Assembly (NCBI GenBank): GCA_039923455.1 | Contig: JBDTCS010000080.1 | Location: 12,079-76,078 of the forward strand | Direction of reading: 5' to 3' | DNA length: 64,000 nucleotides | From: Candidatus Kapaibacterium sp. | GTDB lineage: Bacteria > Bacteroidota > Ignavibacteria > Palsa-1295 | Part shown: positions 4,178-60,804 of the stretch, piece after piece | Layout of the letters: the number at the start of each line of letters is the position of its first letter | Numbering within the stretch: the first letter of the stretch is position 1 | The notes under the pieces: generated by a model | Told to the model about the DNA's origin: nothing | Database searches by the model: none | Seen by the model: the letters and a program-made list of their open reading frames with translations, nothing else | Translations under genes and position numbers: made by a program

Positions 4178-4370
4178 AGTCTGAGTTAAATAAGTCGGAT
4201 AGGTCCGATGAGACCGATGAGTCCCATAATTCCCAATTACCGCGACCACTAACAAGCCAGCCCGAATCTTCATTCGAGGGAGGCTGCAATAAGGATAAGA
4301 TTGAATTTCGGAACCGCCGCTTGCTGAGGCCTGTTGCAGTCGTCCCTGTCAGAAAGCCGATGCAGGAACA

Positions 4371-4533: not shown

Positions 4534-5242
4534 GCAATATCGCTCCGCTCTTCCTACCTAAGTTTTCAGCAAACGAACGAATATGCAGAATTCCGTCCCT
4601 GGGAAGCTTTCTTAGTGCTCTTGCGGTTGTTAGTAGCGTAATGTGGAATGCTCCGCTCATTTGCAAGGAGGGTGTAGCTTTTAATAGGCTGAAAAACAGC
4701 GATTTTCGCATGAAAACAGCCAAAAAGTTAGTTTTCTCCCGAATGATCCGTATTTTGCGTACGAACGGATAAGATCGCGCAGGCGCGCAATCGGCGCTTT
4801 TTCGCTCTTTTTCCGGAATTGACTTAATGAACAGTGCTCGAACGGGTTAGCCTGTGAAGCCTTGCATCGAAATTGTTGTGCGATGTGTGAGCTTGCAGGA
4901 GGGTTTTCCCAAGCGAGTGGATGAATGCTTTGATAGCAGTGCAGCATGTTAGCGAGTTCTTGTGATCTTCGCGGTGCGGCACAGAGAAGAGGTTCAGTTG
5001 AATTACAACCAAACTATTTTATACCGATAACATTCTCTTCGTTTCAGGCACCACGCTCTCGTGAGCTTTTTTGGTGCAGTAGACGGAAGGGCATTCGGAA
5101 TAAATTGGAAGTGTACGCTGGGCAGTTGTTTTATATGTATTTGTAACCATGCAGTCGTTCGTTCTCTTTCTCATTTCTATGCTTGACCGCATCGCTCCGT
5201 GGCGTGCGGGTCTTTGCGCTTTCCCTTCGGGGAAAAAATCAT

Positions 5243-35510: not shown

Positions 35511-35692
35511 GGTGGCAGCTGGAAAGCATTTCGCCCTTGAGCCGGATTCGCGGGCAGAGATTTTTATTAATTCCGTATTAGCACCCTCTGAAACTGAACT
35601 CCTCGAATCCCGTATTACGTTGTAATAGCATCACTTGTTCAGCATTAGCTTCCGTTTTTTTTTGACACCACTTCGAAGGCGCAAGATATTAG

Positions 35693-47875: not shown

Positions 47876-48304
47876 TTATGCAGCGTTGCAGGTAGCACAG
47901 AGTCCGTAGAGGTCAAGACGATAATCGGTGACGAGTGCATTTCGCAACGGTCCACCACGCTTCTTAATCAACTTCGTTTCGAGGGAGCGCGGCAAGTCAT
48001 GTACGGCACCGCATTTAGTGCAAACAAAATGCTCGTGCTGCTCCGTCATGCCATCGTAGCGAGCGGCTCCACCGATAAATTGCACCTCGCGAATCCTGCC
48101 ATCTTCGACCAACAGTCCCAAATTACGATACACCGTCCCGAGCGAAAGCGAAGGAAGCTTTCGTTTAGCAACGCGATAGACCTCTTCGGCCGAAGGGTGC
48201 GAGTGCGATCGTTTGACGACCTCGAGCACAACGGTCCGCTGATTTGTTGAACGGCGTTGTGGGATTTCGGTAGGGGTAGAAGTTCTTTGAGTCGGCATAT
48301 TCAC
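47876..48304 (-). CDS. Fur-family metalloregulator (probably PerR-like, given the rubrerythrin and Fe-S neighbours)
   Basis: DNA-binding helix region (RSHSHPSAEEVYRVAK...LSLGTVYRNL). Metal sites HEHFVCTKCG and CATC. GTG start at 48304; an ATG lies 2 codons in. Confidence 0.8.
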   Translation of the reverse strand: MNMPTQRTSTPTEIPQRRSTNQRTVVLEVVKRSHSHPSAEEVYRVAKRKLPSLSLGTVYRNLGLLVEDGRIREVQFIGGAARYDGMTEQHEHFVCTKCGAVHDLPRSLETKLIKKRGGPLRNALVTDYRLDLYGLCATCNAA

Positions 48305-48329
48305 GTTCTGCGTTTACCATTAGCTAATA

Positions 48330-48348
48330 AATAGTAATAATTACTATT
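48330..48348. promoter_or_regulatory. Perfect 9-1-9 inverted repeat AATAGTAAT-A-ATTACTATT (Fur/PerR-box-like operator) upstream of the fur-like gene
   Basis: Read directly. It lies 26-44 bp upstream of the regulator start codon, in the divergent fur/metH intergenic region. Confidence 0.5.
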
Positions 48349-48540
48349 AGTGATATAGTGAAAGCCGTTCTCACGTATAATGATTCCAAAGGGGCGGTGT
48401 ATCCGTCCCGAACTCTTCATTCACTCACGAGCGTTTGATCTATCCGTGGTGCTTTGACCTATCGCAACAGCTTGCTGCCACGTTAAAGAAAAGCTAAAGC
48501 GTTGCACCGCCAGAGCCCATTTGCGGCCCCGAGCGTAACA

Positions 48541-48572
48541 CCCGATAGGTCAACAGCCTTATCGGGTTTTTT
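48541..48572 (+). promoter_or_regulatory. Intrinsic terminator/attenuator hairpin in the metH 5' leader (candidate riboswitch expression platform)
   Basis: Stem cccgatagg / ccttatcggg, then TTTTTT, ending 43 nt before the metH ATG. It follows roughly 200 nt of GC-rich structured leader. Confidence 0.55.
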
Positions 48573-48614
48573 GATGGACTTTTGTTGAATGGACTATTCT
48601 TGGATAGCGATCGT

Positions 48615-50441
48615 ATGAGCTTCTTATCTTTTCTGAACGAGCGTGTGCTCGTGTTCGATGGTGCTACCGGCACCAATTTACAAACGCAGGATCTTACGCC
48701 GGATGATTTTGGCGGTGAACATTTTGCGGGTTGCAATGAATATCTTATTCGTACAAAGCCCTCGGCCGTTGAGAAAGTCCATACCGATTTTCTCGAAGCC
48801 GGTGCAGATGTAATCGAGACGGATACGTTCGGTACATCATCGATCGTGCTTGCAGAGTATGGCCTCGAAAGCATTGCCTATGAGCTTTCGAAAGAGGGCG
48901 CTGCGATCGCAAAGAAACTCGCGATGCAATATTCGACCAAAGCGAAACCAAGATTTGTCGCTGGCTCCATCGGTCCAACGACAAAGCTTCCATCGCTCTT
49001 GCACATTTCCTTTGACGCGATGCGTGATAGCTACTACGAGCAGATGAACGGACTGCTCGATGGTGGTGCTGATCTTTTTATTATCGAGACGTGTCAAGAT
49101 CTATTGCAGATCAAAGCTGCACTTGCGGCAGCGCAAGATCTTTTTCGCGATAAGCGCGTACAACTTCCGGTCATCACATCTGTCACAATCGAGACGATGG
49201 GCACGATGCTCATGGGTACCGAGATCGGGGCGGCACTCACTACGCTTGAGCCCTATGACCTGATCACATCTATCGGTATGAACTGTGCAACAGGACCGCA
49301 AGAGATGGAAGAGAACGTGCGGTACTTAACACAGAACTCTCCGCTGCCCGTATTCTGCATGCCGAATGCAGGATTGCCGGAGAATGTCGGCGGTGTCGCA
49401 CACTATCACTTGAGTCCGGAGGATCTTGAAAAATGGATGAGCCATTTTGTCGGTGATCTCGGCGTCTCTATTGTCGGTGGTTGCTGCGGAACAACTGTGG
49501 CGCACATCAAGCGCCTCGCCGATCTTGCAACACGTATCACTCCCGCTCGTCGCGAAGTGACATGGACTCCCTCTGCATCTTCGATCTATTCGAGCGTTCC
49601 ATTGCATCTGGAGCCCGCACCCGTTATCGTCGGTGAGCGCTGCAATACGAACGGCTCAAAGAAATTCCGTGATCTGATTCTTGCTGAAGATTATGACGCA
49701 GCGGTTGCAATGGCTAAAGAGCAAGTCAAAGAGGGTGCGCACATGCTTGACATTTGCGTTGCGTATGTCGGACGTGATGAGGTTCGCGATATGCACGAAG
49801 TCATGACACGTTTAAATACGCAGATCTCCGTGCCACTGGTCATCGACTCCACCGAGTATCCCGTCATCGAAGAAGCGTTGAAACTCTATGCAGGCCGGTC
49901 GATCGTCAACTCGATCAACATGGAAGATGGCGAAGAGCGTATGGCGCATGTTTTGCCCCTATGTAAGAAATATGGTGCGGCGGTTATCGCGCTCACCATC
50001 GACGAAGATGGCATGGCAAAAACGCGTGAGAAGAAATTTGAGATCGCTGAGCGTATCATTGATATCTCAGTCAACAAATATGGCATGCGTGAAGAAGATA
50101 TTCTCTTCGATACGCTTACCTTCACACTTGGCTCCGGCGACGATGAGTTTCGCAAGGCGGGAATCGAGACGATTGAAGCAATTCGTATGATCAAGGCTGC
50201 CCATCCAAAGTGCCGGACAATACTTGGCGTATCGAATATTTCATTCGGTCTAAATCCGCATTCACGCCACGTGCTCAACTCCGTGTTCCTCCATTTTGCT
50301 ATCGAGGCGGGGCTTGATATGGCGATTGTCCATGGCGCTAAGATCATGCCACTACACAAGATAGACGAAAAGGGCCGCGAACTTTCACGCCAAATAATCT
50401 ATGACGAGCGCGTCTTCCAATATGGAGCAGTGGCGGCATAG
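48615..50441 (+). CDS. metH: Methionine synthase, homocysteine-binding plus pterin-binding modules only (split MetH lacking B12 and AdoMet domains)
   Basis: LNERVLVFDGATGTNLQ aligns with the E. coli MetH N-terminus. A Hcy S-methyltransferase domain and a pterin-binding domain are present. The ORF ends at about 609 aa with no cobalamin-binding motif. Confidence 0.8.
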   Translation: MSFLSFLNERVLVFDGATGTNLQTQDLTPDDFGGEHFAGCNEYLIRTKPSAVEKVHTDFLEAGADVIETDTFGTSSIVLAEYGLESIAYELSKEGAAIAKKLAMQYSTKAKPRFVAGSIGPTTKLPSLLHISFDAMRDSYYEQMNGLLDGGADLFIIETCQDLLQIKAALAAAQDLFRDKRVQLPVITSVTIETMGTMLMGTEIGAALTTLEPYDLITSIGMNCATGPQEMEENVRYLTQNSPLPVFCMPNAGLPENVGGVAHYHLSPEDLEKWMSHFVGDLGVSIVGGCCGTTVAHIKRLADLATRITPARREVTWTPSASSIYSSVPLHLEPAPVIVGERCNTNGSKKFRDLILAEDYDAAVAMAKEQVKEGAHMLDICVAYVGRDEVRDMHEVMTRLNTQISVPLVIDSTEYPVIEEALKLYAGRSIVNSINMEDGEERMAHVLPLCKKYGAAVIALTIDEDGMAKTREKKFEIAERIIDISVNKYGMREEDILFDTLTFTLGSGDDEFRKAGIETIEAIRMIKAAHPKCRTILGVSNISFGLNPHSRHVLNSVFLHFAIEAGLDMAIVHGAKIMPLHKIDEKGRELSRQIIYDERVFQYGAVAA

Positions 50442-57453: not shown

Positions 57454-57527
57454 CGTTTATTCCCCAAAACCCTAATAAAATAAGGCTCTGGAACCTTGAG
57501 ATAGGGTGTCCCGTTACAACCGCGCTA

Positions 57528-57563
57528 TAGAAATGATCGCGGGGTGGAGTCCGCCGCGGCGGA
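57528..57563 (+). other. 5' fragment of a tRNA-fMet-like unit (acceptor stem plus D arm with the GC-palindrome insertion)
   Basis: cgcggggtggag-tccgccgcggcgg-agtagctcgtc, then agtgcaggtttcaaaatgat before the intact tRNA restarts. Confidence 0.4.
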
Positions 57564-57583
57564 GTAGCTCGTCAGTGCAGGTT

Positions 57584-57656
<73 letters not shown>

Positions 57657-57659
57657 ACC

Positions 57660-57702
57660 CCCGCTACAAAAAAGACTTAATCGTACGATGTGCGATTAAG
57701 TC
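57660..57702 (+). terminator. Terminator-like hairpin after the tRNA (aagacttaatcg...cgattaagtctt + T-run)
   Basis: 12-bp stem then TTTTGTTTT. The same hairpin recurs after the next unit. Coordinates are approximate. Confidence 0.55.
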
Positions 57703-57753
57703 TTTTGTTTTGAAAAATTTTAAGCAGCGCACCGGTTAAGATCCCCTTAGCAG

Positions 57754-57855
57754 CTCGGGGTGGAGTCCGCCAGGGCGGAGTAGCTCATCGGACTCAGAAC
57801 CCGAAGTCAACGATCCGACGCGGCGGAGTCGTAGGTTCAAGTCCTACCCCCGCTA
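57754..57855 (+). pseudogene. tRNA-fMet-derived repeat unit with two insertions and a degenerate anticodon arm (CAG)
   Basis: ctcgggg-tggag-[tccgccagggcgg]-agtagctcatcggactcagaacccgaag-[tcaacgatccgacgcggcgga]-gtcgtaggttcaagtcctacccccgcta. Preceded by the leader agcgcaccggtt...cttagc and followed by the same terminator hairpin (57851-57890). Confidence 0.5.
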
Positions 57856-57942
57856 CAAAAAAGACTTAATCGTACGATGCGCGATTAAGTCTTTTGTTTT
57901 GCAAAAATTAAAGGAGCGCACCGGTTGAGACCCACTTAGCTC

Positions 57943-58044
57943 CACGGGGTGGAGTCCGCCGCGGCGGAGTAGCTCGTCGGGCTCATAACCCGAAGTCAAC
58001 GATCCGACGAGGCGGAGTCGTAGGTTCAAGTCCTACCCCCGCTA
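57943..58044 (+). ncRNA. tRNA-fMet-like repeat unit retaining CAU anticodon arm and T arm, with a 13-nt D-loop palindrome and a 21-nt variable-region insertion
   Basis: cacgggg-tggag-[tccgccgcggcgg]-agtagctcgtcgggctcataacccgaag-[tcaacgatccgacgaggcgga]-gtcgtaggttcaagtcctacccccgcta. Position 2 is A, which breaks one acceptor pair. It is followed by a weaker hairpin. Confidence 0.45.
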
Positions 58045-58261
58045 CAAAAAAGACTTAATCTTACAAAGTGCGGTCGAGTCTTTTGTTTTTGCTAAATTCT
58101 AATCCCGTATCTCCTTCACTGCATATCGCTGAGCACAATTCCGGTACAACGCATTCGACAAAACATGCAAAGAATTGGAAAGTCGTGTATACATAGCCAT
58201 ACGACAGGAGTGGTAAGAAATAATACGCAACTAATCTGTCCAGAACAAGTTGTGAAGTGGA

Positions 58262-60670: not shown

Positions 60671-60804
60671 AAGCTTGGGAGAAGTATCCGCACCTTGCGC
60701 ACAAATCCTTTCGCTTCCGTGGTGCTGCATTCGGTTGATGAACCAAACTCCATTTATCCCGTTGCTTATCTTGGTCGTGTACGTACCTTCGTCCGCAAGA
60801 TCTT

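Follow-up and report, generated by a model that had tools for sequence, protein, structure and literature searches.

Organization of the interval upstream of metH

The stretch of DNA analysed here (64 000 nt from Candidatus Kapaibacterium sp., hereafter the window) contains a short metH gene, separated from a divergent gene for a Fur-family regulator by the interval 48305–48614. A preliminary description had seen in this interval a structured leader of about 310 nt, in which an AT-rich operator-like segment is followed by roughly 200 nt of GC-rich sequence and by an intrinsic terminator before the ATG, and had read this as the architecture of a transcription-attenuating riboswitch. The AT-rich segment was found as described (48305–48384, 80 nt, with 30% GC compared with 49.5% in the window) and holds a 19-bp palindrome. 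The GC-rich character stood in part, since the GC content of 48385–48540 is raised to 53.8%, which is only a mild enrichment over the 49.5% of the window. The terminator was also recovered, as the sole such site in 48200–48700, where 0.5 would be expected by chance, and the end of its T-run lies 42 nt ahead of the ATG at 48615. The features of the locus are as follows.

47876–48304, minus strand: divergent gene for a Fur-family regulator (Pfam FUR, 87.3 bits)
48330–48348, no strand assigned: Fur-type 9-1-9 perfect palindrome of 19 bp, AATAGTAAT-A-ATTACTATT, read directly from the sequence
48410–48435, plus strand: promoter-like box GAACTCT-N-CGTT (type GAAC-N16-18-YGTT), ending about 9 nt before P1
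48445–48504, plus strand: SAM-II aptamer, an H-type pseudoknot (Rfam SAM_alpha match, our own model R1, P1 covariation and P2 pairing)
48445–48450 with 48477–48482, plus strand: P1, CGUGGU / GCCACG (aptamer layout, coordinates verified)
48451–48464, plus strand: L1 triplex strand GCUUUGACCUAUCG (aptamer layout)
48454–48464, plus strand: proposed 5' strand of an antiterminator, the 3' part of L1, UUGACCUAUCG (complementarity, covariation and folding snapshot)
48465–48473, plus strand: 5' strand of P2a/P2b, CAAC-A-GCUU (aptamer layout)
48483–48496, plus strand: L3 loop (aptamer layout)
48497–48504, plus strand: 3' strand of P2b/P2a, AAGC-GUUG (aptamer layout)
48540–48572, plus strand: intrinsic terminator, a 10-pair stem at 48540–48567 (−14.1 kcal/mol) with a T-run to 48572
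48543–48553, plus strand: proposed 3' strand of the antiterminator, CGAUAGGUCAA, equal to the terminator 5' arm and part of its loop
48615–50441, plus strand: metH N-half, 608 amino acids, homocysteine S-methyltransferase and pterin-binding modules (Pfam S-methyl_trans PF02574 and Pterin_bind PF00809 only)

On the Fur side, the best NCBIfam matches of the 47876–48304 product were PerR models, every one of them below cut-off. The palindrome sits 26–44 bp upstream of this PerR-like gene and is likely to be the operator of the Fur-family gene itself, a function suggested by its sequence; it thus falls within the interval originally described as the leader and outside the riboswitch. In the window, metH is followed by a gene for an AhpC/TSA-type thiol oxidoreductase, and the gene order fur / metH / AhpC-TSA / 7TM-HD was repeated on three metagenome contigs. 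Folding of 48380–48580 gave a stability not significantly above that of shuffled sequences (z = −1.69, with 12 of 200 shuffles folding as well), and the evidence for structure in the leader therefore comes from homology and covariation instead of from folding energy.

A SAM-II aptamer in the metH leader

A scan of the whole window with Rfam at gathering scores reported no match in the metH leader. When 48250–48700 (451 nt) was scanned permissively, with permissive filters and E ≤ 10, the SAM_alpha model RF00521 matched 48436–48517 over its full length (model positions 1–79) at 33.7 bits and an E-value of 5.7e-6. This is 2.3 bits short of the gathering score of 36 bits, which is an operational cut-off and no structural feature. 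The only other family matched was the SAM-II long-loop model RF01726, at 21.8 bits where its gathering score is 44, and SAM-I, SAM-V, SAH, THF, T-box and cobalamin models gave no match even at E ≤ 10. Our own covariance model R1 scored the window aptamer at 67.6 bits, as its single match in the whole window.

The preliminary description had left the ligand open, with SAM among the candidates, and had seen a loose resemblance to the cobalamin-riboswitch core, for which no RF00174 match was found at E ≤ 10. The scan of Rfam riboswitch models that it had suggested matched SAM-II, although below threshold, and together with the conservation of the leader this resolved the ligand class, with SAM supported by the 33.7-bit match and by five orthologues above the gathering score. 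Among the fragments that it had quoted, GGTGCTTTGACC and GCTGCCACG turned out to be P1/L1 and the 3' strand of P1 of the SAM-II element, whereas GGGGCGGTG...CCGTCCCG lies outside the conserved element. Judged by its sequence, the metH leader carries an ordinary SAM-II riboswitch aptamer with a terminator, just under the standard database threshold, and its predicted ligand class is SAM. Automated Rfam annotation at curated thresholds would overlook this leader by those 2.3 bits.

Conservation and covariation among related loci

Using the MetH protein we gathered 80 related loci, the nearest of which came from Candidatus Kapaibacterium and Ignavibacteriota metagenome-assembled genomes (MAGs). 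Of these, 31 loci of Kapaibacteria, Ignavibacteriota and Bacteroidota had the aptamer ahead of metH; 30 of them form alignment A1, and the covariance model built from A1 also detected one locus outside it. Orthologous leaders in the same register scored 50.6 (L068), 45 (L009), 41.2 (L003), 38.3 (L001) and 38.1 (L013) bits with RF00521, and since these five exceed the gathering score, the window copy can be seen as a slightly sub-threshold member of a SAM-II set that Rfam does recognise. The earlier reading of a transcription-attenuating riboswitch before metH was hence upheld, in the form of a SAM-II aptamer and a terminator that are conserved in relatives, and the comparison of homologous leaders that had been suggested with it also gave covariation in P1.

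P1 was paired in 96.7% of cases in the 30 sequences of A1, with changes on both sides at three of its six pairs, one of which was G-C in 20 sequences and C-G in 10. Slid controls of the A1 helices made pairing collapse to 25–55%. In P2, the strands AC-A-GCUU and AAGC-GU were paired in 30 of 30 sequences, with P2b and the first two pairs of P2a at 100%, and P2a reached 4 bp in the window (CAAC/GUUG) as in 19 of the 30. Because P2 never varies it carries no informative covariation and is seen by complementarity alone. The core nucleotides UUUGA, ACAGCUUGC and GCUAAAGCGU were invariant columns of A1, aligned to upper-case consensus positions of RF00521. One position sets the Kapaibacteria-type aptamers apart, as these read GCUUUG, with C for A just before the U-run compared with the GAUUUG of the Rfam consensus and of the Bacteroidota relatives.

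A pattern scan of metagenome sequences was unspecific, with only about 14 of its 81 matches being genuine aptamers, all of which stood ahead of a metH-like start codon. Together, some 44 aligned examples (30 genomic and about 14 metagenomic) could join the family seed and thereby raise its sensitivity.

The related loci also showed variation in layout. An extra hairpin of 25–55 nt was found in L3, between the 3' strand of P1 and the UUAAA box, in seven loci (L004–L008, L012 and L056), and one of the same size inside L1 in two (L013 and L150); such insertions account for the lower Rfam scores of those SAM-II copies. In about 10 Bacteroidota loci the riboswitch and terminator lay some 550 nt upstream of metH, as in L029 (2594–2950), where a 118-aa open reading frame (ORF) occupies the gap between terminator and metH; the same far-upstream position was seen in L023, L025, L026, L028, L032, L036, L044, L045, L051 and L059.

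A promoter-like box and the likely start of the leader

The sequence GAACTCT-N(14-18)-(C/T)GTT was found about 9–11 nt upstream of P1 in 10 of 14 Kapaibacteria-type leaders; L005, L008 and L009 have diverged forms of it, while the Bacteroidota-type leaders have a TTG...TAnnTTT element where this box stands. In the window, the general form GAAC-N16-18-YGTT had 12 matches, five of which were intergenic (six with the match preceding the SRP RNA), with intergenic DNA making up 15% of the window (binomial P 0.025 and 0.005, respectively). GAAC-N16-18-YGTT may thus be a general promoter type in the Kapaibacterium of this window. As for 48410–48435, we infer from sequence only that it would be the metH promoter, with transcription starting at about 48441–48444.

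As the promoter-like box ends some 9 nt short of P1, the functional leader probably measures about 175 nt (about 48441–48614), and the length of some 310 nt first given to it did not hold. A start near 48441 would also place the hairpin GGGGCGGTGTATCCGTCCC (48391–48409), which lies upstream of the likely promoter and is not conserved in relatives, outside the RNA. A sigma-70 promoter for metH was considered and rejected, as the candidate TTTACC-N17-AATAAT (48313–48341) runs into the Fur-type palindrome, and no −35 element matches the TATAAT at 48376. We also considered a long-range helix around the aptamer, between GGCGGTG (48393–48399) and CACCGCC (48506–48512), which could enclose the aptamer only if transcription began upstream of 48393. 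It was set aside because the aligned 5' flanks of the relatives hold no conserved counterpart and because its 5' strand is probably upstream of the transcription start.

Boxes of this type lie at 393–418, 4311–4335, 35596–35621, 48410–48435, 57491–57515 and 60740–60763 in the window, and those that are intergenic precede genes on the same strand, including a tRNA cluster, the SRP RNA and the riboswitch; they resemble promoters of ECF sigma factors. The tRNA cluster (region 57540–58090, plus strand) has features of its own. An initiator-type tRNA-Met (57594–57667) is followed by two tRNA-like genes of 98 nt, at 57759–57856 with anticodon CAG and at 57948–58045 with anticodon CAT, which scored 33 and 38 bits with the Rfam tRNA model. 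Both keep the acceptor and T arms of the tRNA-Met, but a GUCCGCC..GGCGGAGU hairpin stands in place of the D-arm, and the variable region is longer by an insertion of about 22 nt. Region 57540–57575 holds a partial copy, and the same terminator hairpin closes each unit.

Terminator and candidate antiterminator

Most of the 30 homologous leaders have a terminator hairpin with T-run 10–50 nt beyond the aptamer; L040 and L056 showed no canonical one, and a few others were marginal. In the window, the 3' part of L1 (48454–48464), with two U's of the SAM-binding triplex strand among its nucleotides, can pair without mismatch over 11 nt with 48543–48553 in the terminator 5' arm, at a duplex energy of −15.7 kcal/mol compared with −14.1 kcal/mol for the terminator itself. 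The same relation was seen throughout the Kapaibacteria-type leaders, where in an anchored alignment of 14 loci the 3' part of L1, GACCnnC, complements the arm GnnGGUC and the core seven pairs hold. At one of the L1-to-arm pairs, A-U was found five times, G-C five times and U-A three times among the 14 loci, with slid controls being 14–47% paired, and the rule was also kept in seven more metagenome copies. This covariation probably goes back to no more than two or three independent events, each in its own clade.

Folding gave a more divided picture. In a co-transcriptional snapshot taken before the terminator 3' arm has emerged, nine of the 14 Kapaibacteria-type leaders, the window included, had the 5' arm paired with L1, and when the aptamer strands were locked the terminator formed in every locus folded. 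Equilibrium folding was rejected as proof of the antiterminator, because a first fold of the window showed it whereas a systematic run on full leaders retained the terminator in the minimum-energy fold of 27 of 29 loci, and with other ends in the window too. The two competing states of the window were near-isoenergetic (−42.1 against −40.8 kcal/mol), with values that vary with the chosen ends. The energy of the aptamer with its own terminator arm was −10.4 kcal/mol compared with −8.6 kcal/mol for swapped arms, which is a weak separation, and per locus neither the aptamer-arm duplexes nor the snapshot pairing were clearly better than with shuffled arms, the window reaching 0.06. Since the systematic folding keeps the terminator, we have downgraded the antiterminator to a kinetic, co-transcriptional hypothesis, which the folding snapshots support; as such, the covarying complement between L1 and the terminator arm suggests a kinetic antiterminator in the Kapaibacteria group.

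The Bacteroidota-type leaders showed another complementarity, in which a 3' tail GCGUCG, an extension of P2a when SAM is bound, complements the terminator 5' arm CG(A/G)CGC. With L1 against arm in one group and tail against arm in its sister group, these two platforms make up a small natural experiment in the wiring of aptamer to terminator.

In one subgroup of the Kapaibacteria, a linker box, ACTACTTGCA, is conserved in the segment that joins the SAM-II tail to the terminator (L002–L004, L006, L008, L009 and L011, and the metagenome copies L092, L106, L108, L112, L137, L138, L144 and L158); the window is without it. The box resembles the AGCUUGC of the aptamer and is no complement of it.

The regulated gene

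The product of 48615–50441 (NCBI MEO6939118.1, Candidatus Kapaibacterium sp.) had been described beforehand as a MetH with homocysteine and pterin modules only, and this proved correct: S-methyl_trans and Pterin_bind were its sole Pfam domains, and its 608 residues aligned to positions 1–612 of the 1182-position metH model TIGR02082, without the B12-cap, B12-binding and activation modules. The protein ends exactly at the junction between the N-half and C-half of five relatives in which MetH is encoded by two genes, the next gene encoding the C-half with cap, B12-binding and activation modules. Full-length MetH occurs in Bacteroidota relatives, such as the 1168-aa protein of L029.

The two adjacent genes (L022, L024, L037, L039 and L078) often have overlapping stop and start codons, with split junctions near 4800 (near 2413 in L037), an N-half of about 605 aa and a C-half of about 560–630 aa, and this arrangement was found in several Ignavibacteriota, Bacteroidota and Kryptoniota MAGs.

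Stand-alone MetH C-halves made up more than 100 protein clusters, some of them adjoining an N-half, and at least one C-half (615 aa, in L084) was unlinked from any N-half on a 443-kb contig. Within 3 kb downstream of metH, C-half modules were absent in the 21 closest loci, and no B12 module was found in the 64-kb window by tblastn, family HMM or the DxHxxG..SxL..GG motif. By its sequence, the short MetH is best explained as one half, the N-half, of a cobalamin-dependent MetH that is split, an arrangement of which the two-gene form is common in relatives. By analogy with these, in which C-halves are adjacent or unlinked, it is plausible that the corrinoid protein is encoded separately, none being present in the 64-kb window.

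Proposed mechanism and alternative explanations

What this analysis shows is which aptamer the leader contains and that it is conserved, that a terminator is likewise conserved, and that L1 is complementary to the terminator arm and covaries with it. We consider it highly probable that the leader is a SAM-II riboswitch that acts as an OFF switch by transcription termination; the binding of SAM, the point at which transcription starts and the kinetic competition are the steps that we infer. The transcript would probably begin at about 48441, a few nucleotides ahead of P1 (48445–48450 with 48477–48482), which would form in the nascent RNA. When SAM is abundant, it would bind in the major-groove triplex formed by the U-run of L1 (48453–48455) and P2b (GCUU at 48470–48473 with AAGC at 48497–48500), and the bound ligand would lock the pseudoknot, including P2a (CAAC with GUUG). 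With the pseudoknot locked, L1 would be unavailable, so that the terminator hairpin at 48540–48567 could form and RNA polymerase would stop ahead of metH, at the T-run. With little SAM present, the pseudoknot would lack this stabilisation, and free L1 (48454–48464) could pair with the emerging 5' arm of the terminator (48543–48553); this alternative pseudoknot would serve as the antiterminator, allowing metH to be transcribed.

The same aptamer could instead work mainly or additionally at the level of translation, through a SAM-dependent hairpin that occludes the translation-initiation region, which we regard as unlikely in view of the window itself, where the ATG lies 42 nt beyond the T-run and the hairpin thus leaves the start region uncovered, and of the hairpin with T-run being a canonical intrinsic terminator in most loci. 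What speaks for translational control is that the T-run abuts the start codon in most close relatives, as in GAGGTGTTTTTTTATG of L002, L004–L007, L009 and L011, which places the hairpin on the ribosome landing site in a lineage where Shine-Dalgarno sequences are not obvious. Translational control is, moreover, known for all SAM-V riboswitches and for a minority of the SAM-II class (PMC6061858), and a dual-regulation SAM-II riboswitch is reported from Sinorhizobium (PMC9373788). A change of ligand, to SAH or another adenosyl compound, through the lineage-specific A-to-C exchange by the U-run seems more improbable still. The exchange is present in all 14 Kapaibacteria-type aptamers, and ligand change in close variants of SAM aptamers has a reported precedent (PMC10853860); all other core positions are nevertheless retained, among them those of the U-run and of the GCUU/AAGC pairs, which build the U:A.U triples surrounding the sulfonium (PMC6061858), the regulated gene is a methionine synthase and as such an expected target of SAM feedback, and the C-bearing Kapaibacteria members L001, L003, L009 and L013 still exceed the Rfam SAM-II threshold.

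Attenuators outside SAM-II, such as a cobalamin riboswitch, a T-box or a leader peptide, have a negligible likelihood in our judgement. A cobalamin riboswitch has in its favour a likeness to the core seen by eye only (GGTG..ATCC..CCCG; GCCAC), and was rejected because 48250–48700 gave no matches to cobalamin, T-box or Rfam families other than the two SAM-II models at E ≤ 10 and the whole window had no RF00174 match at gathering score; nor is the 5' hairpin quoted in the preliminary description conserved in relatives. Leader-peptide attenuation could point to an ORF of 25 codons (48380–48457), which is the sole ORF there, has no internal Met codons and begins upstream of the likely promoter, and was discarded for these reasons. 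The SAM-II OFF switch acting by termination is thus the reading that we retain. Two bolder readings go beyond it, and we hold them to be improbable. In one, the Kapaibacteria-type SAM-II would use a distinct platform, the triplex strand L1 itself being the antiterminator in place of the 3' pseudoknot strand, through an alternative pseudoknot with the terminator 5' arm. In the other, the genome would lack any C-half partner for the 608-aa MetH N-half, which would work with another corrinoid carrier or with free cobalamin. If true, a MetH N-half without a C-half would be a non-canonical methionine synthase under SAM control.

Comparison with known systems

The finding widens the range of SAM-II, which now takes in Kapaibacteria and Ignavibacteriota, a lineage that has received little study, for which we know of no cultured model organisms, and in which methionine synthase would, judging from these leaders, be under direct SAM feedback. 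The general understanding of riboswitches and of methionine synthesis is unchanged by it.

SAM-II, originally the metA motif, was described as a P1 stem with a pseudoknot and a promoter a few nucleotides before P1, with P2 and the ORF in many instances separated by an intrinsic terminator, as acting as an OFF switch and as occurring in the Bacteroides group (Corbino et al. 2005, PMC1273637). It is mostly transcriptional, with a P2a helix and with a major-groove triplex of U:A.U type that binds SAM (Barrick and Breaker 2007, PMC2258182; Huang and Lilley 2018, PMC6061858). The promoter-aptamer-terminator layout of an OFF switch as seen in the window is in this sense one already described for SAM-II in 2005–2007. 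Like RF00521, the window has a single P1 with an H-type pseudoknot of P2a and P2b and a U-rich L1 triplex strand, the GCUUGC and GCUAAAG boxes, a promoter-like box before P1, a terminator between P2 and the ORF, and a gene of methionine/SAM biosynthesis downstream. It differs from that family in being 2.3 bits below threshold, in having C for A before the U-run and an L1 that is 5 nt longer, and in that the competitor of the terminator in the Kapaibacteria group appears to be L1 and not the 3' pseudoknot strand. The host also differs, as published SAM-II hosts belong to the alpha-, beta- and gamma-Proteobacteria and Bacteroidetes and that of the window to Kapaibacteria/Ignavibacteriota; no pairing of SAM-II with Ignavibacteria was found in the literature searched.

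Two related families, RF01726, described from Bacteroidetes and marine metagenomes, and SAM-V (RF01826), share the pseudoknot fold and the SAM-binding triplex with the window. SAM-V is translational and has a P2a of 2 bp (PMC6061858), whereas the window has a P2a of 4 bp and a terminator. As for the regulated enzyme, a MetH split into three parts is known from Phaeobacter inhibens (Price et al. 2018, PMC5764234), and as in that case the modules of the window-type MetH reside on separate polypeptides in relatives. In Phaeobacter the homocysteine and pterin modules are separate and reactivation is RamA-like (PMC5764234), whereas in the window those two modules are fused in one protein.
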